Notes: generated from the letters alone by a model not told the origin. 64,000 nucleotides of DNA from Oscillospiraceae bacterium (GCA_022009755.1 CP091722.1:1092098-1156097); one strand, 5' to 3'. Shown: positions 23,132 through 39,889, counted from the stretch's first letter. Translations and numbers: made by a program.

Positions 23132-24554
23132 TCAGGCCTTTATAAGGCTGCGATAGAGCGCTTTATATTCCTTTGCGCTTTTTTTCCATGAGTTATCGGC
23201 CGTCATTGCGTTATATATCAGTTTTTCCTTTGCAGCGCCGTCCTTAACGGTTTCCAGCGCAAAGCGTATTGTGTACGCCATATCGTGGGCATTGAAATTT
23301 TCAAAGGCGAAGCCGTCCCCCGTACCCTCATAACGGTTATAGGGATGCACGGTATCGGCAAGCCCGCCCGTAAGACGCACTATGGGCAGAGTGCCGTAGC
23401 GCATGGCTATCATCTGGCTTAAGCCGCAGGGCTCAAAGCGAGGGCATAAGCAGCAGGTCGGCACCGGCATATATGCGGTGCGCCAAGGCATTGTCAAAGC
23501 CGATAACAGCCCTTACGCGCTTATTATACCACTGCTGCGCATTTTGGAAAAGCGTTTCGTAGCCGCGATCCCCGCTGCCCAGAACAATGAAACGAAAATC
23601 ATCCGAAAGCAGCAGCTCGTGCAGCATTCTCTCCACAAGGGCAAGCCCTTTCTGCTCATACAGTCTGCCCACCATGGCTATTATCGGGCTGTGGGAGCGC
23701 TCCAGACCCAGCTCGTCCTCCAGCGCTTCGCGGCATTTTTCCTTGCCCGATATATCATCGGCACTGTAATGTGCGGCAATGAGCGGGTCGGTTTGCGGGT
23801 TGTATTCGTTATAATCAATGCCGTTCAGTATACCGATATAGTCTTTATCGCGGCTGCGCAGCACTCCGTCCATTCTTTCGCCGTAAAACTCCGTTTTGGT
23901 TTCCTGCGCATAGGTACGGCTGACGGTAGTGAGCTTATCCGCAAACACAAGCCCGCCCTTTATAAAGGAGGCTCCGCCGTAGAATTCAAGGCCCTTGCTT
24001 GTAAAGAGGGAATCGTCAAAGCCCATGAGATCCTTGAGCAGCTCTATGCCGTATATACCCTGATATTTGAGATTATGAATTGTGAACACTGTTTTTATAT
24101 TAAGATGGGCAAAGCGGGTTTTAAGCAGCACGGGAATAAGCCCAGTCTGCCAATCGTGACAGTGCAGGATGTCGGGCTTAAAGCCCATAAGGGGCAAAAG
24201 CTCCAGCACCGCCAGCGAAAAGAAGGCATATTTTTCCGCCTCGCCCTCCATATAGCCGTATACACGGTCGCCGCCGAAATAGTATTCGTTATCGATAAAA
24301 TAATATGTGATGCCGTCCCTTACAAGGGAAAACAGTCCGGCATACTGCCTTCTCCACCCCATTGCAATATATGTGCTGCCCAAAAAAACGGCATCTTTCA
24401 TAAGCTCCGGACGGATAACGCGGTATTTGGGCATTACTACCCGCGTTTCCACTCTCTCCCTTCGCAGTGCGCCGGGCAGAGAGCCGGTAACATCCGCAAG
24501 CCCTCCCACCTTTGCAAAGGGGCTGACCTCGCTTGCCGCAAATAAAACCTTCAT
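23132..24554 (-). CDS. glgA: Glycogen synthase; one apparent frameshift
   Basis: N-terminal MKVLFAASEVSPFAKVGGLADV motif. ATG 24554 is preceded by AAGGAG. ORFs 24593-23433 and 23497-23132 overlap at the break. Confidence 0.9.
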
Positions 24555-24723
24555 AAAAAATATCTCCTTAAAATGTCGTTTGCCGTGCCGCAAAAGGGCG
24601 CAAGGCTCGCTTTTTTCCGCTGCACGGCCGCGCCGCTTTTACGGTACCGCCGCACTTATTGCGCCTGCTCAAAAGCAGCTTTTCTTTGAAAAGAGCGGTC
24701 CGCAGCGCGGCCCGCCTTTTGTT

Positions 24724-25819
24724 TTATACCACTACATTTTTTCCTATGATAACTGGGAAGCTTTCCTGCCCGCCTATACGCTTGCCCTGACCCACGGTTA
24801 CGCCTTTATCCAGCACTGCGTAATCCAAAGCAACATCACGCTGTATGACGGAATTCTGCATTACTATGCTGTTTGTAACAACAGCGCCCTTTGCTATGTG
24901 CACGCCGCGGAAGATTATGCTTCTTTCCACTCTGCCCTCAATACGGCAGCCGTCCGCAATTACGCTGTCCTCCACCACCGCGGAGTCGGAATAATAGGTG
25001 GGCACGGTGTCCTTTACCTTGGTGTAGATAAAATTCTCGTTGAAAAACAGCTCCTTGCGCACCGAGGCCTCCAGCATCTGCATATTGCAGTGATAATAGG
25101 CGTTTACGCTGTCGATCTTGCCCGCATAGCCGTCGTAGCGAAAGGCGCCGATGTTCATTTTGCCGATATTGCGCACCAGCACATCCATGAGAAAATCGTG
25201 CAGCCCCCGTCCGTAGCAGTAGGCTATCTGTCTGCACAGAAGCTCCTTTTCCATAAAGTATATGCCCAGCAGCCTTGCGCACTGCTCCGGGCGCTCGGGG
25301 TGCGCCTCGATATCGGTGACGCGGTCGTTTTCCACCGATATGCGCGCGCCGCAGGAATTGCACAGCCCGTAATTGTACATAACGGTTATATCCGCGCCGG
25401 AATCAATGTGGGCCTGCTGCAAGGCCTCAAAGCGGGGGTTATAAAGGATATCGCCGTGGGCGATGAGCACATATTTGTTTTGAATGCTCCAAAAAGGTTT
25501 TAATACCGTGCAGAACATCCATATCGCCGCGGTACTGCTCTCCGCCCTGAATATAAGGAGGCAGTATTCGCAGGCCGTACAGCTTGCGGTTAAGATCCCA
25601 CTCCTTGCCCGAACCGAGATGATCCATAAGGGAACGGTAGTTGCTTCTTGTGGTTACCCCGACATTGCTTATGCCGGAATTGACCATGCCCGAAAGGGTA
25701 AAATCTATAAGGCGGTATCTGCCTGCAACAGGCAGCGCCGCTACGGAACGCACGCGCGTAAGCTCCGCAAGGCGTGCATCGTTATCACCCGTCATTATTA
25801 TTCCAACAGTATCCGTCAT
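24724..25819 (-). CDS. glgD: Glucose-1-phosphate adenylyltransferase regulatory subunit GlgD; one apparent frameshift
   Basis: GlgC-like fold without the GGxGxRL motif (IIMTGDNDARLAELTRVRSVAALPVAGRYRLIDFTLS), with left-handed beta-helix repeats at the C-terminus. It lies between glgC and glgA, as in Bacillus-type operons. The break is within 25439-25518. Confidence 0.85.
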
Positions 25820-25896
25820 TTCTCCCGCGCCTGAAAACGGCACTCCCTCCAAAAATATTGCCGCAGCGATTGCCGCGCGCATTTTCAGTTTTATAT

Positions 25897-27129
25897 TCAG
25901 CAGTGCGTAAGCTCGCCTGGCTCCACATCAAATTCCAGCATGACGCCCCATGGCACGCGCGCCTGCGGCGCGACGCTTATTCCCTTGCCCACAAGGGTTA
26001 TGCCCTCATCGCACAAGGGGCTGGGCTCCCGGTTTATATTGCCCTCACGACAGCCGATAAATGCGTTTTCCCCCACCACGGCGCGTTCGCCTATGACGGC
26101 GTTTCGCACGGTTGCTCCCCTGCACAGATGTGCATACGGCAGTATTATTGAGTTTCCACCGTTACTCCGTCCTCAATATTCACGCCGGTGAAAACCACGG
26201 AGTGAAAAACATCGCCTGCAATGTAGCAGCCCTCGGTTATGCAGGAATCGGTTATATGCGCGCCTTTTTTAACATATTGAGGCGGCATTCCCGCAGTACG
26301 GGAATAGATGCGCCAAGAGTCATCGCGAAGATCCAGCACCGGTCTTTCGCCCAGCATATCCATATTTGCCTCCCACAGGGAGCGCACGGTTCCGACATCC
26401 TTCCAATAGCCGTCGAAGGCGTAGGCATACATGCCGCAGCCGTCGGAGAGCATTGCGGGAATGACATCCTTGCCGAAATCGTTGGAGGAGGACACATTGC
26501 TTTCGTCCATGGTAAGGTACTTTTAAGCACGCTCCAACGGAATATGTACACGCCCATGCTGGCCAAAGTGCTTTTGGGCTGCTTGGGCTTTTCGGTGAAA
26601 TCGTATATTCTGCCCTCCGCATCGGCGCTCATAATGCCGTAGCGGCTTGCCTCCTTAAGGGGGACATTTATGACCGCTATGGTAGCATCCGCATTCTTGG
26701 AGATATGATATCTGAGCATTTCCGATAATCCATTTTGTATATATGATCGCCCGAAAGGATAAGCACATATTCCGGGCGGAACTGCTCGATAAATTCGGTA
26801 TTTTGGTATATAGCATTTGCCGTGCCCTTATACCACTCCCCCTTATTGCCCCGTACAAACGGGGGCAGAACATAGACGCCGCCGTTTGTGCGGTCCATAT
26901 CCCAGGGCTGTCCGCTCCCGATATAGGTATTAAGCTCAAGGGGCTGATACTGTGTAAGCACCCCGACGGTGGTTATGGAGGAGTTTGCACAGTTGGACAG
27001 CGGAAAATCTATAATGCGGTATTTTCCGCCGAAGGGAACCGCCGGCTTTGCCACCGTAGTGGTAAGAGCGCCCAGACGGCTGCCCTGCCCGCCGGCCAGT
27101 ATCATGGCAACGCATTGTGAATGCATCAT
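25897..27129 (-). CDS. glgC: Glucose-1-phosphate adenylyltransferase; three apparent frameshifts
   Basis: [14 protein letters not shown] and [15 protein letters not shown] motifs. Four ORF fragments (27129-26677, 26719-26252, 26510-26145, 26109-25897) are collinear with GlgC. Confidence 0.9.
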
Positions 27130-27225
27130 AAAAACATATGTGTCCTTTCAGTATTTCATGTAACGCCGCAAAATCAGCAGCGCACGGCCGCGGAGAAATC
27201 CGCGGCTGTGCCTGCATATGCCCGA

Positions 27226-29145
27226 TCAATCGGTTCTTTTGTATATCAGCACGCTAAGCCCCGGCAGATTCAGTCGCAGGCGGTTCTTATGCCCTGCCGT
27301 TTCGTGTTCATCGGTTTCCGCAGATTCAACAGCCTCAAAGCCGCTGCCGCCGAAGGCTTTATCCTCACTGGAGAGCACAAGCTCCCACGCGCTTTGCTCC
27401 GGCATGCCCACCCAGTAGTCATAGCGCTCCACGGGAGTCATATTAACGGCAATGAGCAGCTGCTCCGTGCCGCATTTGCGAAGGAAGGTGAACACGCTGG
27501 CCGCCGCATCATCGGCATTGCACCAAACAAAGCCCTCCCACGAGGTATCCTCCGCCCAAAGCGCGGGATTGCTTCTGTACAGCCGGTTAAGGGCGCGCAC
27601 AAAGGAATATATACCGCGGTGAGTTTCGTACCGAAGCAGCTCCCATTCGATATCTTCGTAGTAGCGCCACTCCATGAACTGCCCCAATTCCGTGCCCATA
27701 AAGAGCAGCTTTTTCCCGGGGTGTGCGTACATATAGCCAAGGTAGGCCTTAAGGGAGGCAAACTTCTGCCAATAATCGCCGTTCATTTTATCCAAAATGG
27801 TTTTTTTGCCGTGTACGCACTCATCATGGGACAGGGGCAAAATAAAGTTTTCGTTGAAGGCATACATCATGGAAAAGGTCATAAGCCCGTGTCTGCCGCT
27901 GCGGAAAAGAGGATCGGTTTCCATATATCTGAGGGTATCGTTCATCCAGCCCATATTCCACTTAAAGCCGAAGCCGAGCCCCCCGTCGGACACGGGGGCG
28001 GTTACGCGCGGATAATCCGTTGATTCCTCCGCCACCATTATTGCATTGGGGAAGCGTGCGTATACCTCGGTATTCAGGCGCTTTATGAACTCCACCGCGG
28101 CAAGGTTTTCCCGCCCGCCGTGCTCGTTGGGCGTCCACTCGCCGTCCCGCGCGCCGTAATCAAGATAGAGCATGCAGGACACGGCGTCCACGCGCAGTCC
28201 GTCCAGATGATACTCGCTGAGCCAGTAAAGAGCATTTGAGATAAGGAAGGAGCGAACCTCCGGCCTTTCCAGATTGAATTTAAGCGTGCCCCACTGCTTT
28301 TGATCGCCGCGGTCGCCCTCCGCCTCATAAAGCGCAGTGCCGTCAAAGCGGGCAAGACCGTGTTCATCCCGGCTGAAATGTGCGGGAACCCAGTCCATAA
28401 TAACTCCGATGCCCTTGGCATGCAGCGTGTCCACAAAGTATTTGAAGTCCTCCGGCGTACCGTAGCGGGAGGTGGGGGCATAAAAGCCGGTTACCTGATA
28501 GCCCCATGAGCCGTCATAGGGATGCTCGGCCAGCGGCAGCAGCTCCACATGCGTATAGCCGTTATCCTGAGCATAGGCGGCAAGCTTGTCCGCTATATCG
28601 CGATAGGAGAGCATTTCGCCCTTTTCCGAACGCACCCAGGAGCCAAGATGCAGCTCATAAATGCTCATGGGTTCATTATACGGCGCCTTGCCGTGCTTTA
28701 TGCGATATACTCCGTCGTGCCATTTATAATCGTCATACCATGTGCGGCTGGCCGTTTCGGGACGGAGCTGAGCAAAGCGCGCAAAGGGGTCGGCCTTATA
28801 ATGCACGCTGCCGTCACGGTGCTCCAGCGTAAACTTGTAGGTCCAGCCCACGCCGATATCCGCGATATATTTTTCCCAGATGCCGCTGTCGCCCACAGGC
28901 TGCATTGCATCCGCTCCCGGCTGCCAGTCGTTCCAGTCGCCTACCACGCTTACGCGCACGGCATTGGGCGCCCATACGGCAAAATAATAGCCGTCAATCT
29001 GCCCTGTACTGTTAAAAACGGGACGCGCTCCGAGCATATTATATGCTTCAAAGTGCGTCCCTTGACGGAACAAATAAACATCAAGCGGGCCTATGAGCCT
29101 GCCTTCGTCTGTGCCGGGCTTCCAACCTTGCAAAGCTTTATCCAA
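27226..29145 (-). CDS. glgB: 1,4-alpha-glucan branching enzyme
   Basis: GH13 branching-enzyme regions GLRVDAVSCMLYLDY, MVAEESTDYP and LPLSHDE. The 639-aa ORF is intact. Confidence 0.95.
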   Translation of the reverse strand: MDKALQGWKPGTDEGRLIGPLDVYLFRQGTHFEAYNMLGARPVFNSTGQIDGYYFAVWAPNAVRVSVVGDWNDWQPGADAMQPVGDSGIWEKYIADIGVGWTYKFTLEHRDGSVHYKADPFARFAQLRPETASRTWYDDYKWHDGVYRIKHGKAPYNEPMSIYELHLGSWVRSEKGEMLSYRDIADKLAAYAQDNGYTHVELLPLAEHPYDGSWGYQVTGFYAPTSRYGTPEDFKYFVDTLHAKGIGVIMDWVPAHFSRDEHGLARFDGTALYEAEGDRGDQKQWGTLKFNLERPEVRSFLISNALYWLSEYHLDGLRVDAVSCMLYLDYGARDGEWTPNEHGGRENLAAVEFIKRLNTEVYARFPNAIMVAEESTDYPRVTAPVSDGGLGFGFKWNMGWMNDTLRYMETDPLFRSGRHGLMTFSMMYAFNENFILPLSHDECVHGKKTILDKMNGDYWQKFASLKAYLGYMYAHPGKKLLFMGTELGQFMEWRYYEDIEWELLRYETHRGIYSFVRALNRLYRSNPALWAEDTSWEGFVWCNADDAAASVFTFLRKCGTEQLLIAVNMTPVERYDYWVGMPEQSAWELVLSSEDKAFGGSGFEAVESAETDEHETAGHKNRLRLNLPGLSVLIYKRTD

Positions 29146-29206
29146 ATAAAACGCCCCCTTATTTCATTATATCGCCAAGGGTCTGCCGCCCTTGAGCCTT
29201 TAGTTC

Positions 29207-29235
29207 AGTTTACCAAATCCGAGCCGTAAAGTCAA
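29207..29235 (-). promoter_or_regulatory. Candidate promoter of the glycogen operon
   Basis: On the minus strand: TTGACT (29235-29230), a 17-nt spacer, then TAAACT (29212-29207), preceded by TGG. Confidence 0.4.
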
Positions 29236-29498
29236 TACCGCTTAAGTAAAATAAATGAAAAAAATTCTCATCAGAAATTCAAAACGGTTTATTTTTCAGA
29301 GTTTTTTTCCCCATTCAAGGCGCGGATACACGAAAAAAAGCAGCACCGAAACAGGGCAAGGCGTTTGGCCGGATGCCGAACGCAGGCATTGACACCTTTG
29401 CGAAAAAGCATATAAAATATTCTAAATAAACAAAAAGCACCCCCGTGCCGCAAAATTGCAGGCTGCAGGCGCGGGGTGCGCAAAGAGTGAGAAATGAT

Positions 29499-30527
29499 AT
29501 GAAAAAGAAATTGAATTACAGCGTCATATCCTATCAGGCGGAGATGGCAAACGAGGCATTGGGCGAGCTGCTTACGGCGGACGGTCAGGCAAGCGCAGTG
29601 CCGCTTGATGAGGAAACGGCTTTGGCCGCCACCGTGCCGGATTTCGGCAGGCTTTGTGAAATTTTCCGGCGCAGGCCACCGGTTTTTATCCGGCATATTC
29701 ATCCGGCGGAGCAGACGGTGGAGCTGTGCGGTGAGAGGGAGCGCGACCTTGAGGTTCTGTGCAGCGCCGCCGAAAGCTTCAAGGAACGCGTAACGCAGAG
29801 ATACTCGGTGCAGTGCAGAATATTGGGCAAGCATGACGGCGGGCTTGCGCCCTTTGATATAAACAGCGCATTAAGCGCCGTGCTTGCCGCATCGGGGCAG
29901 GAATGCGATATCAAAAACCCGGTGCAGGTGCTGAGCGTTACCGCTGCAAACGGAAAAGCGTATATGGGCCTTTCCCTTGCAAAAGACAATCTTTCCTCCT
30001 GGGCCGGAGGAAGGATACGCTTCCGCAGGGAGGACGGGCAGCTTTCCCGCGCGGAATTCAAGCTGCTTGAGGCGGAACAGACCTTGGGCGTAGCACTGTT
30101 TCCGGGAGCACGGGTATTGGATCTGGGTGCCGCGCCCGGCGGCTGGAGCCGCATTGCGCTGGAGCGCGGCTGCTCGGTGGTGGCCGTGGACCCCGCAGAG
30201 CTTGATCCCGGTCTGCTTGCCCGCCGCGGTATAACGCATATAAAAAAGACGGCGCAGGAATACCTTGAAGCGCCGGAAAATGATTTTGATTTTATTCTTA
30301 ATGACATGCGGATGGCCCCTGAGGAATCGGCCGCGCTTATTGCGCGCTTTCAGCCCTGCCTTAAGTACAGAGGCACGGTGGTGCTGACCCTTAAGCTGTT
30401 CGGGGACAAGCCGCGCCGCCAGATGCTGCGTGCCCTTGACACGCTGGGCAACTATTACAGCATTGTGCATGTGCGCCAGCTGTTTCACAACCGAAGCGAG
30501 GTAACCGTTATTCTGCGCAAGGAATAG
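29499..30527 (+). CDS. THUMP-like / FtsJ-RlmM-like SAM-dependent RNA methyltransferase
   Basis: SAM site VLDLGAAPGGWS in the C-terminal half and a THUMP-like N-terminal half. ATG 29499 (MKKKLNYSV) is preferred over 29445. Confidence 0.7.
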   Translation: MKKKLNYSVISYQAEMANEALGELLTADGQASAVPLDEETALAATVPDFGRLCEIFRRRPPVFIRHIHPAEQTVELCGERERDLEVLCSAAESFKERVTQRYSVQCRILGKHDGGLAPFDINSALSAVLAASGQECDIKNPVQVLSVTAANGKAYMGLSLAKDNLSSWAGGRIRFRREDGQLSRAEFKLLEAEQTLGVALFPGARVLDLGAAPGGWSRIALERGCSVVAVDPAELDPGLLARRGITHIKKTAQEYLEAPENDFDFILNDMRMAPEESAALIARFQPCLKYRGTVVLTLKLFGDKPRRQMLRALDTLGNYYSIVHVRQLFHNRSEVTVILRKE

Positions 30528-30564
30528 ACTGCTGCGGCAAAAGCGCAAGATTCATAGAGCAGTT

Positions 30565-30599
30565 AAAAAGCAGGGCGTTTGCCCTGCTTTTGCTGTTTT
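30565..30599 (+). terminator. Intrinsic terminator of the methyltransferase gene
   Basis: AAAAAGCAGGGC gttt GCCCTGCTTTTGCTGTTTT: a perfect GC-rich stem followed by a T-run. Confidence 0.75.
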
Positions 30600-30843
30600 G
30601 TACATATACCGCTCAGCAGATACGAAAATGCACACGGCTGATTTTTTGCTGTTTTGCAGCGAAACGCGAAGACGCGCCGCAAGCGCAAGGAACGCCGCAG
30701 TAAGCCGTGCTTACGCAGGCGTGCCCGCAGCGCGGGCCGGGCGGCGGCAAGCCCGCAGGGCGCAGACGGCGCACGGCCGGGGGCGAAGCCCCCGGCGCGG
30801 CGTCCGCTGCTTAAATATGCTTGGCTGCACATATATGCAGTTT

Positions 30844-30934
30844 CACTATTCACTATTCACTATTCACTATTCACTATTCACTATTCACTATTCACTATTC
30901 ACTATTCACTATTCACCATTTGCTATTCACTGCT
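30844..30934. repeat. Heptanucleotide microsatellite (CACTATT) x10 perfect plus about 3 degenerate units
   Basis: Perfect units start at 30844 and continue every 7 nt to 30913. They are followed by the degenerate units caccatt, tgctatt and cactgct. Confidence 0.95.
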
Positions 30935-30963
30935 CATTCTTGTTTTCGCTGCATATGCCCGTA

Positions 30964-32568
30964 TTATCGCATGAAGCCGCCCGCGCCCACGGCGCTGAAG
31001 CTGTGACTTTGCATATCCTGTGAAAAAGTGTAGGTGCCGGTGCTGCAGGAAAAGCTCATAAGGCACACTCCGCTGTACAGCCCAATTGTTCCGTACTCCG
31101 GGCGCATAACGCTCCAAAGCAGCTTACCGTCCTTAATACGGAGCTTATCGCCTATCGCACCTTCGGTGCTGTAAAAGCTTTCCGGCTGTCCTGTCTGCGC
31201 ATCGCACACCATAAGAATGGCCGTGACATTTTCCCGCATCATGCGCGCAATGTCGGCGCACGCCTCCTCGGTTGTGCTTACAAAATTTTCGCCGTATTTA
31301 TCATCGATCTTTTCCAGCACCGCGGCAATATCTGCCCATTGCTCATCGTAAATATAGCTGCTGTTTTCGGGAATTGCGGCGGAATGTGCCGAAATGTAGA
31401 GCTTATCCCCAATTTGCAGCACACTGTCCACGGTAAGCAGTCTTCCTTTATCGGAATATATTCTTGTTTGCCGAATGCCGTTTTCATCAAAGGTTATAAG
31501 CACGGCTTGACCGACAGTGGGGCCTTTTGCCTTGATTATATAGCCGTCGCCCGCTCTGTATGCCGTTTTTCGCCCATCGCCGACTTCTATATCGCATTTA
31601 TGGCGGCTTATACATTCTGCTGCCCGCTCATCCGTGACAATTATCTCCAAGACTTGACCGTGATTGCCGTTTCTTCCGATCAGAATGAAGGTCAGACTTC
31701 CGTTATCGTTTTCAAACACGCCTATGCAGGAGGCATATGACAGGCTCGATTTTATGCTGCTTTTTGCTTTTATCCGACCGTCCGCACTTACGCATATAAT
31801 ATCGATGACGGCTCCCCCTGCACTGCACTGAATAATATCCCCGCCGTGCAATTCGGTATAAGGGCCAAGATCGTTTATATTTTCCGGCATGGGCACTCGC
31901 CAGCATTCTTCCCCTTCGCGGAAGCAGGCAATATAACATTTTTGTATGCCGTCGGCGGGTGCTGTATCATATATTCTTCTTATCAAAGCCGCGCCGCCCA
32001 TATTCTTGCCCGTAAGCATGGTATCATAATAGTTACTGGCATTTCGCTGCCGCTCCAAGGGAGTAAATTCCGGCCATATCGGCGTTATGTTGCAGCCGTA
32101 TATGCCCTCGGTGCCGTCTGTTGCCTCGGTCTGCGGCTGATCCCTGCGGGCATCGGTGCCGACAGTTGCGGAAATCTGTGCCGTTTCGGTGGCCGACGCC
32201 GCAGCGCTGGCATAGCCGGGCTGCATACTGAGCCGCAGCGTAAGCTCACGGTATGCCGTTTTGATCTCGTTTCTGTTCATGCCCTCAATGTTTACATAGT
32301 GCTCCCTGAGGAAATTGACTGCGCAGTCGTACTGTCTTGCCTCTTCGGCTACGGCATAGACGCCGAGCGAGCCCACGGCAATCAGCGCGGCGCAGCCCAC
32401 TGCCGCACAGCGGCGCAGCGGCGCCCAGGTTTGCTTTATGCCAAGCCCCGTAAGAAAGGCCGTTTTCTGCGCTATTCTTTTGCGCGATATACCGCAAGGT
32501 ATGCGATCCTTATGCAGTTTTGTGTTTTCTGCAAGCAGCTCCTCAAACAGCCTGCGATCGTCATTCAT
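30964..32568 (-). CDS. Putative anti-sigma factor / membrane-anchored protein with a large extracytoplasmic domain
   Basis: The start overlaps the sigma gene stop by 8 nt. It has a short cytoplasmic N-terminus, a single TM helix (AAVGCAALIAVGSLGVYAV) and a C-terminal domain of about 450 aa of unknown family. Confidence 0.55.
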   Translation of the reverse strand: MNDDRRLFEELLAENTKLHKDRIPCGISRKRIAQKTAFLTGLGIKQTWAPLRRCAAVGCAALIAVGSLGVYAVAEEARQYDCAVNFLREHYVNIEGMNRNEIKTAYRELTLRLSMQPGYASAAASATETAQISATVGTDARRDQPQTEATDGTEGIYGCNITPIWPEFTPLERQRNASNYYDTMLTGKNMGGAALIRRIYDTAPADGIQKCYIACFREGEECWRVPMPENINDLGPYTELHGGDIIQCSAGGAVIDIICVSADGRIKAKSSIKSSLSYASCIGVFENDNGSLTFILIGRNGNHGQVLEIIVTDERAAECISRHKCDIEVGDGRKTAYRAGDGYIIKAKGPTVGQAVLITFDENGIRQTRIYSDKGRLLTVDSVLQIGDKLYISAHSAAIPENSSYIYDEQWADIAAVLEKIDDKYGENFVSTTEEACADIARMMRENVTAILMVCDAQTGQPESFYSTEGAIGDKLRIKDGKLLWSVMRPEYGTIGLYSGVCLMSFSCSTGTYTFSQDMQSHSFSAVGAGGFMR

Positions 32569-33106
32569 ATTTATCGCCTCCCAGGATACTCCTTAGTTTT
32601 TTTACCGCTCTGTGTGCTCTTGTATCCACTGCGGAAACCGTCATATGCATTATTCGGGCAATGTCCTTTGAATTTTGGGACATAAAGTATTTGCGAAGCA
32701 GTATCTCGCGGTCGGTATTTTCCAGTGCGTCTATCGCCCCCAGAAGCTCCTGCCGCCTTTCCCTGCTCTCGGCCTCGTCCTCGGGGCCTGCCGCCGTGTC
32801 CGGCTCCGCGCCCTCAAGCTCCTCCTGCGGGGCGCCGTTTTTGCGCAGCATATCAATGCACTGGCGCTTGGCTATAATGCACAGCCAACCGGAAAGCCCG
32901 CAGCGCTGCGGATCGTAGCTTTCGCGGGAAAACCAAAACCTTGCAAAGGCTGCGGAAACGCAGTCCTCCACATCCTGCGGTGAAGCGCCGCTGCCCAGGA
33001 TTCCCCTGCACACCGTGCACATAAGCCCGGTATAAAGCCGCATTATAAGCTTCATGCCCTCCTCCGGCTCTGCCGCAAGGCGTGCAAGTATTTTTTCCTG
33101 TGTCAA
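32561..33106 (-). CDS. ECF-type sigma-70 family RNA polymerase sigma factor
   Basis: 181 aa with region-2-like DVEDCVSAAFARFW and a region-4 HTH (SKDIARIMHMTVSAVDTRAHRAVKKL). The TTG start is preceded by GGAGGTGA. Confidence 0.85.
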   Translation of the reverse strand: MTQEKILARLAAEPEEGMKLIMRLYTGLMCTVCRGILGSGASPQDVEDCVSAAFARFWFSRESYDPQRCGLSGWLCIIAKRQCIDMLRKNGAPQEELEGAEPDTAAGPEDEAESRERRQELLGAIDALENTDREILLRKYFMSQNSKDIARIMHMTVSAVDTRAHRAVKKLRSILGGDKYE

Positions 33107-33542
33107 CGCGTCACCTCCACCGCCGCGGCGATTTGCCTTGTCAGACCCGTTCGTTCAGGTCTGTCCGTGCGCAGCGGCACCGCGCGTTCTTCCCCTTTTT
33201 TACGCACGATGCCGTTTTGCAGGATTTGCGGACAGAATACCTGCGCGCCGATGCCCCTGATATCGGCGCGCTTTTCATGCTCCCTTATACTGTACTCCTT
33301 TATTCTCCTTTATATTGCTATATTGCCGCCCGTGCGTTTTTGATGTGCTTTCCCCCGTGCGGCGCACGGCGGCACCTTATCCCCTGCTTTTCCCCAAAAG
33401 CTTGATGCGCGCCTGAATATGCGCCGGCTCCGTGACGGCTTAATTACATAATTATATACGGTTTTTTCACTTTTTTTCTTACAGGATTTTTATGCTTTTT
33501 TTCTGCGCAAATTTTTGGAAAATAATTGCGGCTTTTTAATTG

Positions 33543-33575
33543 TAAAAATGCCGAAGAAACACCGTTTCTCCGGCA
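33543..33575 (-). terminator. Intrinsic terminator downstream of the helicase gene
   Basis: Stem 33549-33560 / 33564-33575 (TGCCGGAGAAAC ggt GTTTCTTCGGCA on the minus strand, with one mismatch), followed by TTTTT. Confidence 0.65.
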
Positions 33576-33612
33576 GATACAAAAGCATTTTCCGCGGCAT
33601 TTTCCCCTACGC

Positions 33613-35976
33613 TTACACATAGGATATTCCGGAATCCCACTGTAAAATACGCTCTTTCATTCCGTTTATATCCAGCACGCCGCAGGCAAAGCCCTTGCGT
33701 ACAAGCTCCTCCGGCACGAATTCATCGTATTTTTCAAACACCGGCACCTCTCCCGGATAAAGCAGCTCCATCGGATTTACAAGCTCTGCCGCTTTTTTTG
33801 CCAAAAGGTGCAGGAATTCATCGGGCTCGGCCGTCATGCGGAACTGCATAAAATACGGCTTTGAGCTTTCAAAGCCCTTGATCCCCGCCTCGGCGCATTT
33901 GAGCTTTATAAGACGCTCAAGAGCCATAAAGGCGTATGTACCCAGCCACGGCATGAGGCACCATGAATCGCCGCCAAGACAAATAAGCGGGTAAGAAAGC
34001 CCGGCATTGTGCGCCGCCCGCCTTGCCTGCGTCAGTCTTGCGCGGGCATTTTTCATAAGATAGGGATACAGCTCGTCCTCCAGCAGCACCTGCTTCATGC
34101 GTTCCAGCACGCGGGTATTGATATCGCCGGGGCACAGCCCGAAAAACGCTGGAACCCTGCCCTTTACCATGGTGCAATAGACCGTGCGGCGTTTATGATC
34201 TATCTCGTCCACAACCCACACATGTCCGGCAAGCGCCAGCCGTTCTCCCACCGGCGGCGGCTTGACCACCGTGCCCAGCTCCTGTGAGCCGCTGCGCACG
34301 GTGTACTCCTCATTTTCCTGAAAAACGGCAAAAAAGCGGTAGGAATTAACCTGTCTTTCGCCGGATATGCCTATTATCAGCCCGCCCTCCGCCGTTTTCT
34401 GTATTTGATCGGTGGCAAGCAAATGGCGCAGCAAAATGACATAATCCTCTTTTGTTATGCCGGAAAAGCAGCTGAGGGAAAGCACGCGGCGGGCAAGCTG
34501 CGACGGCAGCAGCTCGCCGCAGGAGCAAAGCACGCTCATGGTTTGGTGATACAGCAGGCTGTACGGCAGCTTGCCGAGCCTTGGCGGCTCCACCCAGTGT
34601 TCTTCCCGGTAAAGCTGCACAAGCGCCGCGCCCTGAAGCAGCTGCCACGGCAGGGACGCAGGCAGCGATGCCCGCATCTCCGGCGGCTCCTCCCTCATAA
34701 CAAAGCGCATCTCCGGCGGAAGCTCGCGCCGTCCCGTTCGCCCCATACGCTGAAGGAAGGAGGAAACGGTGAAGGGGGCGTTTATCTGGAATGCCCGCTC
34801 CAAGCGGCCAATATCTATGCCCAGCTCCAGCGTAGCGGTGGTGACTGTGGTAAGGGCTCTGGTTTCGTCCTTCATGGCCTCCTCCGCCGTTTCGCGGTAG
34901 GATGCCGACAGATTGCCGTGATGAATGAGAAAGCGGTCCGCCTCGTGCTTATACTCGCAATATTGCCTTAAAGTGGTGGTGACGGTTTCACATTCCTCGC
35001 GGGAATTGACAAACACCAGACACTTGCGGCCGCGGGTATGCTCAAAGATATAGCCTATGCCGGGATCGGCTCCGGCGGGAGCGGTATCGGTGCGGTCGGC
35101 GGTAAATTCCGCCTCAAGGCGTTCCCTCTGAGCTGCGGTTATACCCGCCGGCAAAGGAGAGCTTTCTTCGGTTGATATGTTCAGACGCTGCGAATCGGCG
35201 CATAACCGTCCCGTTTGCGCCGCTTCCAATGTGTTCTGTGCGGAATTCTTCTTCTCCGGCTCTGCCGCCTGCGGGCCGGCCGTAAAGAAGTGCTCCATGC
35301 TCAGGCGCCAGCGCACGCCCTTATTTTCCAGTCTCGGAATTACGGTGCGCCGCCCCGTTCCCTGAGAGAGCAGCCTTCCCATCTCCTCCGGCTCGCCTAT
35401 TGTGGCGGAAAGCCCGATACGGCGCGGGTTTACGCCCGCAAGGGAGCAAAGGCGCTCTATAAGGCAAAGCGTCTGACCGCCGCGGTCGCCCCGCATTACG
35501 GAATGCACCTCGTCTATTACTATAAACCGAAGATCCCCGAAAAGCCGGGGAATATCGGCGTGTTTACGCATAAGCATGGCCTCAAGGGATTCCGGGGTTA
35601 TTTGCAGCACTCCGGAGGGATGCTTGAGCATACGCGCCTTATGGCTTTGTGCTACATCCCCGTGCCAGTGCCATACGGGAATGCCCGCCTCGCCGCACAG
35701 CTCCTCAAGGCGTGAAAACTGATCGTTTATAAGCGCCTTGAGCGGCCCGATATATACCGCTCCGATACTGCACGGCGCATCCTTTGAAAGCAGGGTAAGC
35801 ACCGGAAAAAACGCAGCTTCGGTTTTTCCTGAGGCAGTGGCGGCCGTAAGCAGCACATTATCGTCCGTTCCGAATATGGCCTCGCCTGCCGCCACCTGCA
35901 CCGCGCGCAGGCTGTCCCAGCCGCTGCGATATATATAATCCTGAACAAAGGGAGCGTACTGCTGAAAAACATTCAT
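33613..35976 (-). CDS. sngC: DEAD/DEAH-box SF2 helicase (Shango SngC-like)
   Basis: Helicase motifs I TASGKT, II DEVH, III SAT and VI QRMGRTGRR. ATG 35976 (MNVFQQY), preceded by GGAGAA, is preferred over 36051. It is the last gene of the TerB/ATPase/helicase operon. Confidence 0.85.
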   Translation of the reverse strand: MNVFQQYAPFVQDYIYRSGWDSLRAVQVAAGEAIFGTDDNVLLTAATASGKTEAAFFPVLTLLSKDAPCSIGAVYIGPLKALINDQFSRLEELCGEAGIPVWHWHGDVAQSHKARMLKHPSGVLQITPESLEAMLMRKHADIPRLFGDLRFIVIDEVHSVMRGDRGGQTLCLIERLCSLAGVNPRRIGLSATIGEPEEMGRLLSQGTGRRTVIPRLENKGVRWRLSMEHFFTAGPQAAEPEKKNSAQNTLEAAQTGRLCADSQRLNISTEESSPLPAGITAAQRERLEAEFTADRTDTAPAGADPGIGYIFEHTRGRKCLVFVNSREECETVTTTLRQYCEYKHEADRFLIHHGNLSASYRETAEEAMKDETRALTTVTTATLELGIDIGRLERAFQINAPFTVSSFLQRMGRTGRRELPPEMRFVMREEPPEMRASLPASLPWQLLQGAALVQLYREEHWVEPPRLGKLPYSLLYHQTMSVLCSCGELLPSQLARRVLSLSCFSGITKEDYVILLRHLLATDQIQKTAEGGLIIGISGERQVNSYRFFAVFQENEEYTVRSGSQELGTVVKPPPVGERLALAGHVWVVDEIDHKRRTVYCTMVKGRVPAFFGLCPGDINTRVLERMKQVLLEDELYPYLMKNARARLTQARRAAHNAGLSYPLICLGGDSWCLMPWLGTYAFMALERLIKLKCAEAGIKGFESSKPYFMQFRMTAEPDEFLHLLAKKAAELVNPMELLYPGEVPVFEKYDEFVPEELVRKGFACGVLDINGMKERILQWDSGISYV

Positions 35977-36069
35977 AAATATTTCTCCGTTGCGCCCGCG
36001 ATGCCGCGCATTTCTGCCGACGGCTCGCAAAACGCCCGTACAATTGCACATATGTGCATGTTTTGTGTT

Positions 36070-37389
36070 TTATATTTCAAACTCGCTGTATTCGTCCTTG
36101 GCGGAGGCATCGTCAGATACCGCCGAAGAGGGCGAAAAGGTGAATTCGCCGCTGCCGATAAGCTCGGAGGGCGAGGTACCGGGATGCTGACACAGAACAT
36201 TAAGCAGCTGAATGAAATCCCTTATTATTTCACGGGGGGTTATATTCTGATCCGCCCCCACCCTGCCGTACTCCAGCTTTATAAAATCCTCCCGCTGTTT
36301 ATCGTTTAACAATGCGGCATGATCGTACAGTCCGCAATGTATTTCCTCCAGCTTTTCCGCCAAAACCAGCATTTCCTCCGCCGTAAGGGGAGAAAGCTTT
36401 ATTACCGGCGCCATCATATCGCGTTTGTCCGAAGCAAAACGGCCGTCCGCAAGACGGGAGCGCAGTGCCTCATAGCTGTAAAGGCCGCGCCGCTGATCCT
36501 CTATGCACTGGGGCGTGCCGCACATGATGATGCCCATATAGCTTGCCCTTCCCTGAAGCGCATCGTTGTACATAGTAAGCAGCTTTTCGTAGTTATACTG
36601 CCTGGTAATGGCGTTTGGAACCTTGTAGATATTTACAAGCTCGTCGATAAGAACAAGCAGGCCGCTGTACCCCGCTTCATGGAGAAACAGCGAAAACAGC
36701 TTGATATAATCGTACCAATCGTCATCGGTAATGATTATATTTATGCCCAGCTCCGCTCTTGCCTCGCTTTTGGAGGAATATTCGCCGCGAAACCATTTTA
36801 TGACATTAGCCTTAAGCTGATCGTCACCGTCAAGATAGGCTTTATAATAAAGCGACAGCAGGCGGGCAAAATCAAAGCCGTGAACCAGCTCGCTCAGCGC
36901 GCCCACCACGCGGTATATTTCCCTGTCTACAAGCTCGCGGAAGCCCTCGCTTTGGGGTGAAACGCCGTTTTGCGCAACCACTGAGCTTTGTACCGAGCTT
37001 ATCCAGCGCTCCAGTATTAGCGTGAGCGCGCCGCCGTCGGGGCGGGTTTTGGTGGAAAGGTTGCGCACAAGCTCGCGGTAGGTGGCAAGCCCCTGCCCCT
37101 TGGTGCCGTGCAGCCTTCTTTCCGGAGAAAGATCGCAGTCCATAACCGCAAAGCCGCGATCCATGGCATAATTGCGCACGGTCTGGAGCAAAAAGCTCTT
37201 ACCGCTGCCGTACCGCCCGGCAATAAAGCGGAAGGAGGCTCCGCCCTGCGATACAATATCGATATCGTGCACAAGCGCCTCTATTTCCTCCTTGCGTCCC
37301 ACCGTTATATAGGGCAGCCCCACTCTGGGGACCACTCCGCCCTTAAGCGAATTTATAAGTGCCGAAGCAATTCTTTTGGGTATATTCAT
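36070..37389 (-). CDS. sngB: P-loop ATPase (DUF2791/BREX-type ATP-binding domain-like; Shango SngB-like)
   Basis: Walker A GRYGSGKSF and Walker B LLVLIDEL. Its ATG overlaps the upstream gene's stop (ATGA at 37386-37389). Confidence 0.8.
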   Translation of the reverse strand: MNIPKRIASALINSLKGGVVPRVGLPYITVGRKEEIEALVHDIDIVSQGGASFRFIAGRYGSGKSFLLQTVRNYAMDRGFAVMDCDLSPERRLHGTKGQGLATYRELVRNLSTKTRPDGGALTLILERWISSVQSSVVAQNGVSPQSEGFRELVDREIYRVVGALSELVHGFDFARLLSLYYKAYLDGDDQLKANVIKWFRGEYSSKSEARAELGINIIITDDDWYDYIKLFSLFLHEAGYSGLLVLIDELVNIYKVPNAITRQYNYEKLLTMYNDALQGRASYMGIIMCGTPQCIEDQRRGLYSYEALRSRLADGRFASDKRDMMAPVIKLSPLTAEEMLVLAEKLEEIHCGLYDHAALLNDKQREDFIKLEYGRVGADQNITPREIIRDFIQLLNVLCQHPGTSPSELIGSGEFTFSPSSAVSDDASAKDEYSEFEI

Positions 37390-39060
37390 GCTTTTCTCCC
37401 TTCCGATATATTCAAGCCAAGCATTTCATAAAGCTGCGCCGTATAATCCTCCACCGCTTCGGGAGCGGTTTCCTCCCCTATGAGTACGGTATCGGAAAAG
37501 GTATCAAACAGCTTTTCGTTTACGGAATCCATTATTACCGACGGAAGCACGCTTTCACTGCGCAAAAGCTCCGAAAACGGCTCTGCGCACAGCACGCGCC
37601 GCAGGTATTCCTTTTCAAGCTCAGTAAGCCCGGTTTCCGCCGGAGTCTCCGAATCGCACGGCGCGGGCTGTGCCGCTTTGCGGTCTGCCGCCGGGATGTT
37701 GCTTTCGCCGCTGTCCGCCGGCAGGCTTATCTTACGGGAGGATACCCCTTGCGCGGCCGTATTTCCCGGCGCTTGCGTATCCGGCGCCGGATATGCTCCT
37801 TTATCCGCCTCAACCGGTGTATCTGCCGCATACGCCTCCTCCGTTTCGTCAAGTCCGTCAAGCAGGCACTTTAATGTATCATCGGCGTTTTGCCTTATGC
37901 CGGCAAGGGCCGAGGTATCTATGCTGATATTTGCCGCAGCCGCTTTCTGCCTGCTGCCGCAGACATTCTGCCATGCCTTTGTTATAAGCTCGGTATACAG
38001 CTTACTGGGCTGGCATTTCAGCTCCGGCGTAACGCTCAGGCATTTTCTCAGCACCGCGTCTACGCTTTTGATAAATTCTCCCAGCAGCCGGTTCCTCCCC
38101 TTTGAAGCAAACAGGCGTCTGTTTATCCAGTTGCCCGAACGGCAGATATAAACATTGAGAGGATCCACCGTATATTCGGTATCAGGGTGCTTTCCTCCCT
38201 GTAAAACACCGCAGAGCGGAACATGACATACGGGCTTTCGTAAACCTTTCCGAAAAAGCGCTCACATATCCCGCTGCGGCGATGCTTGCCGTAATAATCG
38301 GAAAGAAGGTTAAAGGCCCGCACCGCCGTTGCTTCCGTCTCCTCGGGGTAAAGCCTGTAAAGCTTTGAGTGTGTAAGATCGTAGGAAGAAAGTGCATTAA
38401 GCACGGGAAATATCTCGCTTGCCGGATGCCTTGCGCTTTCGGTAAGCAGCTGCACCGAACGCTCAAAATCCGCCTGTTCCCCCTTATCAACAAGGCTTAC
38501 ATCCATGCCGTAATAAACCGCCAGATCGGAAAGCCATATCTTTGCATACCGTTCTATGCGGTCGTCAAACCCCGCATACCATGCCGCAAACTCTTTAAGG
38601 CGCGCGTAAGCCTGCTGCGCAGACTCAGCCCCTATAAGATTAAGCAGCTCATAGATATAAACAAAGGCATAGGACAGCCCGGCATACGGGCGTTCCCCCC
38701 CCCGCGCACCCTTGTGCGCCATGTAAAATAGGAGCGAAGCTGCGGCAGCGTCATATCGGCATATGTGGGATAGTATCGGAAAAATTCAGTGTTTTCCCTG
38801 TAATCATCCTCAAAATTCTCCATCAGCTTGCCCTGGTGATAAAACAGCATTGCAGCAGAGCGCATGGAGGGCAGCAGCGCCATAGCCCGCATACGGCGAT
38901 ATTCGCCCGGCGCGGCTTCGCTTTGCTGCGGGCGTATTATAGGCTCATCGGTATAAATGCGTTCCGTAACGCTGCATTTGCCGTTTGACTGTTTATCCCC
39001 GACGCTGAAGGCGCGGATGCTTTCCAGCAGCTTTGCCGCAGTATCTGTCAGATTCTTCAA
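37386..39060 (-). CDS. sngA: TerB-N / TerB-C domain protein (Shango SngA-like); two apparent frameshifts
   Basis: The N-terminus YPTYADMTLPQLRSYFTWRTRVRGG...SYAFVYIYELLN is TerB-N-like. The C-terminus LTELEKEYLRRVL...SVIMDSVNEKLFDTFSDTVLIGEE is TerB-C-like. Three collinear ORFs (39060-38632, 38722-38123, 38168-37386) have breaks at the G9 run 38695-38703 and near 38172. The TTG start is preceded by GGAGGGG. Confidence 0.8.
38695..38703. repeat. Homopolymer C9 (G9 on the coding strand) inside sngA
   Basis: Counted directly as nine consecutive C at 38695-38703. The sngA frame changes exactly here, and G7 or G10 would restore ...TRVRGG(G)ERPYAGLSYAF. Confidence 0.9.
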
Positions 39061-39071
39061 ATCCGCCCCTC

Positions 39072-39107
39072 CTTTTCTTGCTTTTCTTGCTTTTCTTGCT
39101 TTTCTTG
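39072..39107. repeat. 9-bp perfect tandem repeat x4 (CTTTTCTTG; CAAGAAAAG on the sngA strand) abutting the sngA RBS
   Basis: Units at 39072, 39081, 39090 and 39099, with a degenerate fifth unit following. The RBS GGAGGGG lies at 39065-39071 on the minus strand. Confidence 0.95.
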
Positions 39108-39239
39108 CTTTTTGCCCTGCCGAGCCGTTTGCGGGTGCTGATATCTTTTGCTTTTGTTTGCCGTTTCCAAAAGCAAACCTGCAAACCCGCGCAGGTAAGG
39201 TCTGCTCTTTACAGCTTTATATTTTTCGGATATCAAACT

Positions 39240-39268
39240 ATTATAGCATAATCGTTTCCGTATTACAA
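39240..39268 (-). promoter_or_regulatory. Sigma-A type promoter for the TerB/ATPase/helicase operon
   Basis: On the minus strand: TTGTAA (39268-39263), a 17-nt spacer, then TATAAT (39245-39240). This leaves a leader of about 170 nt containing a TTTGCTTTTG / CAAAAGCAAA hairpin. Confidence 0.5.
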
Positions 39269-39354
39269 CGGGCAATTGATCTCATTTTACATTTTATACG
39301 GCATAATACGGCAAAAATGCAAAACACGAAGAAGCAAAAAAATCCTGCGGCTTC

Positions 39355-39383
39355 TTGACTTACAGCTGCCTCTGCGCTAAACT
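39355..39383 (+). promoter_or_regulatory. Candidate promoter for the cupin gene
   Basis: TTGACT (39355-39360), a 17-nt spacer, then TAAACT (39378-39383). Confidence 0.35.
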
Positions 39384-39459
39384 GTATTATATAAAACAAA
39401 CCGGCAAACAGGCAGCCGCGATGCTGTTGAAAGCAGAATTGCCGAACAAGCAGCAACAA

Positions 39460-39493
39460 CAAAAAACAAAAAACAAAAAACAAAAAACAAAAA
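39460..39493. repeat. 7-bp tandem repeat (CAAAAAA) x4 plus a partial unit, abutting the cupin RBS
   Basis: Units at 39460, 39467, 39474 and 39481, with a partial unit at 39488 that runs into AAAGGAG (39491-39497). The ATG is at 39506. Confidence 0.95.
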
Positions 39494-39505
39494 GGAGCAA
39501 TTGAA

Positions 39506-39889
39506 ATGGATAAAACACCGATTAAACTGAAGCTGGACGGCATAGATGCGCCGCAAAAGAGAGTACGCATAAAAAACGCGCCAGTAAGCGAAGTGTTTTC
39601 CTTATGCGAGCTTGTACAATACCAGGAGGGGCAGGTTGTAAGCCGCACTCTTGCCCAGAACGAAAACATGAGCCTTACTCTTTTTTCCTTTGACAAGGGG
39701 GAAGAAATAGGTACGCACTCCGCCGGAGGGGATGCGTTTTTGACCTGTCTTGACGGCGGCTGCCGCATTATTGTTGATGAAACGGCCTATGAGCTTACCG
39801 TGGGGCAAAGCATAGTTATGCCGGCGGGGCATCCGCACTCGGTTCATGCAAGCGAGCGCTTCAAAATGCTGCTTGCCGTAATAAAATAG
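39506..39889 (+). CDS. Cupin domain protein
   Basis: 127 aa with a cupin-type metal-site pattern (EIGTHSAGGDAFLTCLDG ... MPAGHPHSV). Confidence 0.8.
   Translation: MDKTPIKLKLDGIDAPQKRVRIKNAPVSEVFSLCELVQYQEGQVVSRTLAQNENMSLTLFSFDKGEEIGTHSAGGDAFLTCLDGGCRIIVDETAYELTVGQSIVMPAGHPHSVHASERFKMLLAVIK

Follow-up and report, generated by a model that had tools for sequence, protein, structure and literature searches.

Whether an antiphage operon whose first gene appears broken is nevertheless functional is the question raised by a locus of an Oscillospiraceae bacterium (GCA_022009755.1 CP091722.1:1092098-1156097). The stretch of 64,000 nucleotides (nt) that was analysed is called the window, and all coordinates refer to it unless one of the public contigs or loci used for comparison, which carry L-numbers, is named. 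A sequence-only reading of the window had proposed a Shango-type trio at positions 33,613 to 39,060 on the minus strand, comprising a TerB-N/TerB-C protein (SngA), an ATPase (SngB) and a superfamily 2 (SF2) helicase (SngC). We find that this locus is quite probably a functional chromosomal Shango operon of an uncultured human-gut member of the Clostridia, in which the frameshifts of sngA are assembly errors and the three proteins act together by the inferred mechanism outlined in the final section.

Shango received its name in 2022, as the earlier reading stated (Millman et al. 2022; independently, Johnson et al. 2023). The system protects Pseudomonas aeruginosa 10-100-fold on plates and strongly in liquid (Johnson et al. 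2023, PMC10250203), and it protects Escherichia coli by approximately 10-fold (Millman et al. 2022, preprint). The idea of a Ter-linked DNA-processing complex dates from comparative genomics published in 2012 (Anantharaman et al. 2012, as relayed by Millman and Johnson). We found no mechanistic study of Shango in the literature, and a preprint of September 2025, which repeats the speculation that such systems survey the membrane, still calls the role of the TerB-type defence protein unclear. Both points agree with the earlier account of the literature.

Family assignment and layout of the operon

The three genes are adjacent, co-directional and arranged in the order A-B-C, and the SngA, SngB and SngC models of PADLOC rank first for the respective genes, well above those for BrxD and BrxHI. 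Specifically, SngB scores 611.8 bits on the SngB model (positions 5-438 of 439) versus 174.1 bits on BrxD, and SngC scores 879.5 bits on the SngC model versus 420.1 bits on BrxHI, with both SngC matches being full length. In Pfam, SngB matches BrxC_BrxD (PF10923, formerly DUF2791) with 559 bits, although its score with the NCBIfam BrxD model (175.3 bits) falls under the equivalog cut-off of 350. SngC carries the Pfam domains DEAD and Helicase_C, retains motifs I, II, III and VI, and lies far under every NCBIfam cut-off for Lhr-type helicases. The sngA gene as written in the window yields fragments that match positions 53-129, 127-314 and 351-527 of the 528 positions in the PADLOC SngA model, with the Pfam TerB_N domain divided between the first and second fragments and the third bearing TerB_C. 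In the full-length protein of the same strain, which is also what repair of the gene produces, TerB_N and TerB_C are found with E-values of 4.5e-30 and 1.8e-17, respectively. Domain-match E-values ranging from 1e-11 to 1e-265 are far beyond what chance would produce.

By these family models, the locus is an ordinary Shango operon and a routine addition to a described family, as the sequence-only reading had held, and each of the Pfam domains expected by that reading was recovered. Its label of a TerB protein needs some refinement. Both TerB_N and TerB_C are present, but the canonical TerB domain (PF05099) was not found by Pfam in full-length SngA even at E<=5, and therefore 'TerB-N/TerB-C protein' is the accurate description. 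The further suggestion of a Clostridia-like homologue is supported by related loci, including that of a related strain with ~94% nucleotide identity (L001).

The operon forms a single predicted transcription unit spanning positions 33549-39268 of the minus strand, and it has its own promoter and terminator, as had been noted. The promoter (39268-39240, minus strand) is of the sigma-70 type, with the arrangement TTGTAA-17-TATAAT, a TG-extended -10 element and 10 of 12 consensus matches. It ties with one other site for the best score in a scan of positions 33000-39600, and its sequence is kept in all related strains compared (L001 and L081-L090). A leader of ~170 nt, which includes the AGGAGG ribosome-binding site, precedes sngA (37386-39060, minus strand). 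This gene begins with a TTG codon at 39060 and, once repaired, codes for 557 amino acids comprising TerB_N, a disordered acidic linker and TerB_C. Its stop codon shares an ATGA overlap with the start of sngB (36070-37389, minus strand), which encodes a BrxD-like AAA+ ATPase of the ORC/Cdc6 type with 439 amino acids. After a spacer of 93 nt comes sngC (33613-35976, minus strand), which encodes a Ski2/Lhr-like SF2 helicase of 787 amino acids with a C-terminal half homologous to BrxHI. The sngC start codon, an ATG at 35976 preceded by a GGAG ribosome-binding site, is the one used in 16 of 16 full-length public gene calls. The intrinsic terminator (33575-33549, minus strand), with a 12-bp stem, a 3-nt loop and a T-run, is located 38 nt past the sngC stop codon. 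All of the catalytic motifs listed in the earlier reading are present in the translations, namely Walker A GRYGSGKSF and Walker B LLVLIDEL in SngB, and TASGKT, DEVH, SAT and QRMGRTGRR in SngC.

The spacer between sngB and sngC contains a perfect 14-nt palindrome, TGCACATATGTGCA (36045-36058), that is kept in the related strain L001 and may act as an operator or form an RNA hairpin. An Rfam scan of positions 33000-39600 gave no match, and the predicted fold of the leader is not better than those of shuffled sequences (z = -1.36). On these grounds, a riboswitch or other known RNA leader was dropped as a candidate. There is also no anomaly in base composition over the operon.

Relative to the Shango systems of E. 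coli and P. aeruginosa PA14, the same three components (a TerB-N/TerB-C protein, a PF10923 ATPase and a DEAD/DEAH SF2 helicase) occur on one strand and in the same order, with family models that match nearly end to end and catalytic motifs that are intact here. However, the host in this case is a gut anaerobe of the Firmicutes, and SngC is longer (787 amino acids versus a profile of 720 positions) and has a low-complexity insert between its RecA lobes. Furthermore, the P. aeruginosa system resides in the hotspot cDHS1, whereas the operon described here stands alone among housekeeping genes, and a 9-bp repeat with variable copy number lies in its leader.

Genomic context, selection and mobility

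Position within the species was surveyed by anchoring on SngB and, to avoid bias towards Shango, on the extracytoplasmic function (ECF) sigma protein encoded nearby. Every contig that is long enough has the same order: a flippase gene, a hypothetical gene, genes for an AEC permease and a cupin, sngABC, the ECF sigma gene, a gene coding for 534 amino acids, an FtsJ-type methyltransferase gene, and glgB/C/D. The flanks in the window are occupied by housekeeping functions (glycogen, sigma-factor, cupin, permease, flippase and uvrC genes). When 20 flanking or large open reading frames (ORFs) of the window were compared with the PADLOC models, the only matches were weak or generic ones, namely GlgB-type glycogen enzymes, a methyltransferase-domain match to mad2 and a low-scoring match to pVip. 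This agrees with the earlier portrayal of an isolated module that is not part of a defence island.

The ratio of nonsynonymous to synonymous substitution rates (dN/dS), calculated by the Nei-Gojobori method against four diverged strains of the species, is 0.01-0.02 for SngB, 0.06-0.08 for SngC and 0.17-0.21 for SngA overall. Within SngA, the ratio is 0.07-0.09 for the TerB-N part and 0.5-0.6 for the disordered linker. These values indicate that all three sng genes are under purifying selection.

A survey of 80 related genome loci revealed the same cassette in Clostridia, Coriobacteriia, Bifidobacteriaceae, Spirochaetia, Desulfovibrio, Anaerolineae and a metagenome-assembled genome of the Methanomassiliicoccales. 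Nearly all loci that are long enough for gene order to be counted keep the sngA-sngB-sngC arrangement, and a TerB-N/TerB-C gene is coupled upstream in nearly all. The flanking genes of the window were not found at any of these loci outside the species. Genes resembling sngB are present on 690 plasmids in PLSDB, 541 of which are conjugative, although some of these may be the brxD genes of BREX systems. The closest cultured homologue (66% identity) resides on a megaplasmid of Clostridium estertheticum, where a relaxase gene lies on one side of it and an IS110 transposase gene on the other. No SngB-like gene was detected in 50,697 phage records. Because the cassette is spread across phyla and carried by plasmids, we regard it as horizontally mobile on this comparative evidence, and in this clade it is usually a stand-alone unit outside defence islands. 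The sequence-only reading had considered that a fixed core-genome position, lacking any tie to mobile or defence contexts, would speak against a defence system. The single site does hold within the species, but the spread across phyla and the plasmid copy beside a relaxase gene and IS110 show that the lack of mobility does not.

In several taxa, sngB and sngC are separated by extra DNA of ~0.8 to 7.5 kb (L039, L072, L017, L020, L052, L054 and L057), and therefore these two genes are not always contiguous. For example, the Atopobium fossor locus (L039, 11397-15826) has three ORFs between them, including one for an FtsX-like permease.

Several points weigh against interpreting the locus as a functional antiphage operon. 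The operon is fixed at a single chromosomal site in the species. Approximately 6 of the 129 nearest neighbours (~5%) in 35 other loci match PADLOC models (E<=1e-8). Moreover, none of nine large neighbours in six loci matches a PADLOC model. Some of these nine lack any Pfam match and the rest have housekeeping roles, with AddB, FeoB, AspRS, EAL, clostripain and FtsX among those that could be named. The scarcity of defence neighbours in the clade weakens any argument for a defence role that relies on guilt by association. In addition, the anti-phage data cover the Shango systems of E. coli and P. aeruginosa, and the Firmicutes homologue is known from its sequence. The whole SngA model has no significant match in the PDB (Foldseek, best E 0.79), the verdict of assembly error for sngA depends on comparison with other assemblies, and the proposals for a sensing cue, an SngA-SngB-SngC complex and a helicase substrate come from inference.

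These observations leave some room for the proposal that the trio is a housekeeping module for DNA repair or stress response in this lineage, in which an Lhr/MrfA-type helicase would cooperate with a loader and an adaptor and would have no antiviral role. Such a module would resemble the Ter-linked DNA-processing complex envisaged in 2012. A place among housekeeping genes that does not vary across the strains sampled, purifying selection and the few defence neighbours at the 35 other loci are what such a module would be expected to exhibit. Likewise, the solved structures nearest to SngC by sequence are those of repair enzymes, namely Lhr (5V9X and 7LHL) and MrfA/YprA (6ZNP), with E-values of 1e-25 to 1e-27. 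These proteins share a Ski2-like DExH core with SngC, but the similarity is limited to the RecA lobes, and SngC, in contrast to Lhr and MrfA, is invariably accompanied by SngA and SngB. Furthermore, SngB and SngC match the Shango models over their full lengths (612 and 880 bits), and protection against phage has been shown for Shango from two species. Spread across phyla at ~60-69% identity points to horizontal transfer, carriage on the 690 plasmids together with the relaxase and IS110 context is typical of accessory defence rather than core repair, and the quick divergence seen in SngA is in keeping with an arms race. A repair or stress function is therefore unlikely, and we favour the interpretation of the locus as a Shango defence operon.

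The genes immediately downstream of the operon deserve brief description. The ECF sigma factor gene (181 amino acids) overlaps the 534-amino-acid gene (30964-33106), whose product has no Pfam or PADLOC match and is presumably an anti-sigma factor. A metagenome scan with this neighbour, aimed at an empty site in a sister species, recovered only three loci, all from the same species. On this sampling, the 534-amino-acid protein is species-specific. Some strains have two extra ORFs of 92 and 57 amino acids with no Pfam match between sngC and the ECF sigma gene (L092, 7556-8004, and also L096-L098 and L100). The second of these overlaps the start of the sigma gene, and both are absent from the window strain. 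Finally, synonymous divergence of L082 and L089 from the same-strain contig L091 is ~0.11-0.12 in sngA and sngB versus 0.04-0.07 in sngC and the genes for the ECF sigma factor and the 534-amino-acid protein. The higher divergence in sngA-sngB than in sngC and the flank suggests that recombination among strains has had breakpoints within the operon.

The interrupted sngA frame and the leader repeat

As written in the window, sngA consists of three ORFs in three frames: 38632-39060 (142 amino acids), 38123-38722 (199 amino acids) and 37386-38168 (260 amino acids). The protein of about 557 amino acids announced by the earlier reading is therefore correct in length only after two repairs. The first frameshift coincides with a run of nine G nucleotides (G9) at 38696-38704 on the minus strand, and the second with a run of three A nucleotides (A3) at 38191-38193 on the same strand. 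Changing G9 to G7 and A3 to A4 yields an SngA of 557 amino acids that is identical to the protein encoded by the same-strain public assembly GCA_021641345.1 (contig JAJXOR010000014.1; L091), in which sngA is intact. Both runs are judged to be sequencing or assembly errors for the following reasons.

Comparison of L091 with positions 24695-39392 of the window (14.7 kb) reveals no substitutions and 18 insertions or deletions (indels), all of which are changes in homopolymer length. Going from L091 to the window, the runs in sngA change from G7 to G9 and from A4 to A3, runs of A4 or A5 in glgC/glgD become A3, and intergenic A or T runs become longer. An independent metagenome contig (L093) matches L091 at all indel sites within its coverage. 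The second run is A4 in 12 of 12 compared sequences, including all 10 metagenome contigs with an identical SngB and the related strain L001. The first run is G7 in L091, L093 and L088 and AG6 in the eight other strains where it can be read, L001 among them; it is AG6 or G7 in the eight readable contigs with identical SngB. All of these forms are in frame, and among the compared contigs the out-of-frame G9 is seen only in the window. The sngA gene is intact in each of the 10 contigs with identical SngB (552-558 amino acids) and, more broadly, in all 15 other contigs that hold the complete gene, comprising 14 public contigs (552-558 amino acids) and L001 (557 amino acids).

The damage is also not confined to sngA. 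Short indels at or beside homopolymers split uvrC (463 and 227 amino acids), the gene for a Polysacc_synt flippase (114 and 453 amino acids), glgA and glgC/glgD in the window. The sites are located at 23435, 25474-27157, 43412 and 45485, and further indels occur in intergenic regions at 29259-29432 and 33471-33538. The uvrC, flippase, glgC and glgD genes are intact in other assemblies, while glgA was compared at its indel site alone. By these comparisons, the window assembly carries roughly one homopolymer indel per kb. Given the 18 homopolymer indels without a substitution relative to L091, the agreement of L093, the other split genes and the exact repair, we judge the sngA frame breaks to be homopolymer-length assembly errors that reflect neither a pseudogene nor a phase switch, and the gene to be intact in the organism. 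The frame correction of sngA that the earlier reading advised restores 557 amino acids, and the need for it lies in assembly homopolymer errors and not in biology.

The opposing proposal, which was attractive at first, is that sngA is truly off in this strain, either as a decaying pseudogene or as a phase-variable poly-G contingency gene. Indeed, the G9 run is positioned exactly at the first break, a tract of G7 or G10 would restore the frame, the tract has grown from AG6 to G7 within the species, and the leader repeat described below changes fast, such that slippage does occur at the locus. However, G7 and A4 are both present in L091, which differs from the window by no substitution, and in the independent L093. 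A second, unrelated break (A4 to A3) would also be required, an out-of-frame tract is absent from the other contigs compared, and the gene is under strong purifying selection. Sequencing error is also the simplest explanation for the 16 further homopolymer indels and the broken uvrC, glgA, glgC/glgD and flippase genes. We consider a switched-off sngA very unlikely, and the poly-G phase-variation and pseudogene readings were rejected on the comparison with L091 and the other broken housekeeping genes. As a practical lesson, any call of a frameshift, pseudogene or phase variation in this window must be checked against other assemblies because of its rate of homopolymer indels.

With sngA read as intact, the sole genuine oddity of the locus, as judged from the strains compared, is a perfect 9-bp tandem repeat in the sngA leader (39072-39112, minus strand; 4.6 copies by TRF), with the sequence GCAAGAAAA on the coding strand. 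It is situated just before the AGGAGG. Four copies are present in the window and in L091, three in L093, approximately three in L083 and L085, and one in most strains. L093 differs from the window by only three substitutions in 10 kb, yet it has three copies rather than four. These comparisons identify the repeat as a real and fast polymorphism. With regard to the hallmarks of phase-variable loci, variation of a regulatory repeat among near-identical strains is present, while variation of a coding homopolymer in and out of frame was not seen.

Two other perfect tandem repeats in the window have 7-bp units. TTCACTA is repeated 12.9 times at 30842-30931, at the 3' end of the 534-amino-acid gene and before the methyltransferase gene, and AACAAAA is repeated 5.1 times in the intergenic region upstream of the cupin gene (39458-39493). 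Both regions vary between strains by indels or repeat changes.

SngA, the possible mechanism and related systems

The AlphaFold2 model of SngA has a mean predicted local distance difference test score of 84 and consists of an N-terminal helix, a confident alpha+beta TerB-N body (residues ~50-400), a disordered linker that is acidic and rich in Pro and Ala (404-474), and a small C-terminal domain. Neither SngA nor SngB has a sequence match among solved structures. When isolated, the C-terminal 85 residues of SngA exhibit a weak likeness to winged-helix DNA-binding domains in Foldseek (E 0.25-1.6; TM-score 0.45-0.57). This domain is acidic, with 18 Asp or Glu versus 7 Lys or Arg residues, and DNA binding is therefore not claimed. 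Rather, the model makes a protein-docking module the more likely role. The invariant residues of SngA concentrate in an Arg- and aromatic-rich motif, PTY...QLRxYFxWRxxxRxG.

Between taxa, SngA proteins are 21-37% identical to the window protein, while SngB and SngC are ~58-69% identical in all but one locus. In a search of a protein collection, where the SngA cluster of this species has 382 member sequences, identity drops from 93-99% directly to 45%. By these sequence comparisons, SngA is the fast-evolving, variable component of the trio. High conservation of SngB and SngC across phyla, set beside the fast divergence of SngA, makes SngA the candidate for the subunit of Shango that senses or confers specificity.

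No recognisable nuclease or toxin domain was found in SngA, SngB or SngC with Pfam and NCBIfam, and none of the three has a hydrophobic segment of transmembrane length (maximum Kyte-Doolittle 19-residue score 1.19-1.32). Because the trio lacks these features, we prefer direct interference with phage DNA, possibly with host nucleases taking over, to abortive killing or membrane surveillance. In the mechanism we envisage, the soluble SngA would serve as a sensor or adaptor for a phage cue and would license an oligomer of the SngB ATPase. This oligomer might then load or activate SngC on phage DNA, by analogy with the proposal for BrxD and BrxHI in type 2 BREX. Presumably, SngC would use ATP to translocate 3'-5' along, or to unwind, the replication or recombination intermediates of the phage, and this would block phage DNA replication without killing the cell.

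The analogy draws on a 2026 analysis of type 2 BREX, where BrxD is an ORC/Cdc6-type AAA+ ATPase proposed to load or activate BrxHI, where BrxHI is a Ski2-like helicase with winged helix-turn-helix, beta-barrel and Lhr-type C-terminal domains, and where the two form a tightly linked pair (PMC12839542). Homologous ATPase and helicase genes are likewise adjacent in the operon described here, but the methyltransferase, PglZ, BrxC and PglW of type 2 BREX are missing, a TerB-N/TerB-C gene is coupled upstream, SngB is under the BrxD equivalog threshold, and no component for epigenetic marking of self and non-self is evident. That the locus derives from a type 2 BREX (Pgl) system of which the BrxD-BrxHI pair alone is left can be dismissed as highly implausible, since the full-length similarity of SngB to BrxD and SngC to BrxHI and the tight linkage of that pair are outweighed by the absence of PglX, PglZ, BrxC and PglW-like genes from the 20 other window ORFs (flanking or large) that were searched, by the scores of SngB (612 versus 174 bits for BrxD in PADLOC, and 175 bits against the NCBIfam cut-off of 350), and by the coupled upstream TerB-N/TerB-C gene in nearly all 80 loci.

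Other defence systems offer more distant comparisons with the Shango operon. Hachiman (HamAB) is also built around a Ski2-like sensor helicase, HamB is a weak match of SngC, and the useful analogy lies in a helicase that surveys the state of DNA. However, Hachiman employs the HamA nuclease as its effector, whereas Shango has no recognisable nuclease and instead includes an AAA+ ATPase and a TerB-N/C protein. The literature places Bunzi and Dionysus together with Shango among the 'TerB' systems, to all of which the membrane-surveillance idea is applied. Bunzi and Dionysus have transmembrane or pore-forming partners, in contrast to Shango, where the partners are DNA enzymes. Moreover, SngA lacks PF05099 here, and no transmembrane-like segment is present in the trio.

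A bolder extension can be formulated by combining the leader repeat with the properties of SngA. The hypermutable repeat may tune Shango expression across the population, while the fast-diverging, soluble SngA may be a cytoplasmic specificity sensor. We hold this combined proposal to be rather unlikely. If true, a costly, helicase-based defence that is fixed in the chromosome would be a rheostat or contingency locus. Also, SngA would be a cytoplasmic sensor with an acidic, winged-helix-like C-terminal domain, which would run against the membrane-surveillance speculation in the literature.

The locus adds a gut-Clostridia representative to the Shango family, and it has little importance beyond annotation. 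Those who work on Shango may find it useful that the clade resides mostly outside defence islands. For the family, the comparisons nominate SngA as the subunit that might confer specificity, and the lack of a true TerB domain or membrane segment in this protein argues against membrane surveillance by the Shango clade represented here.

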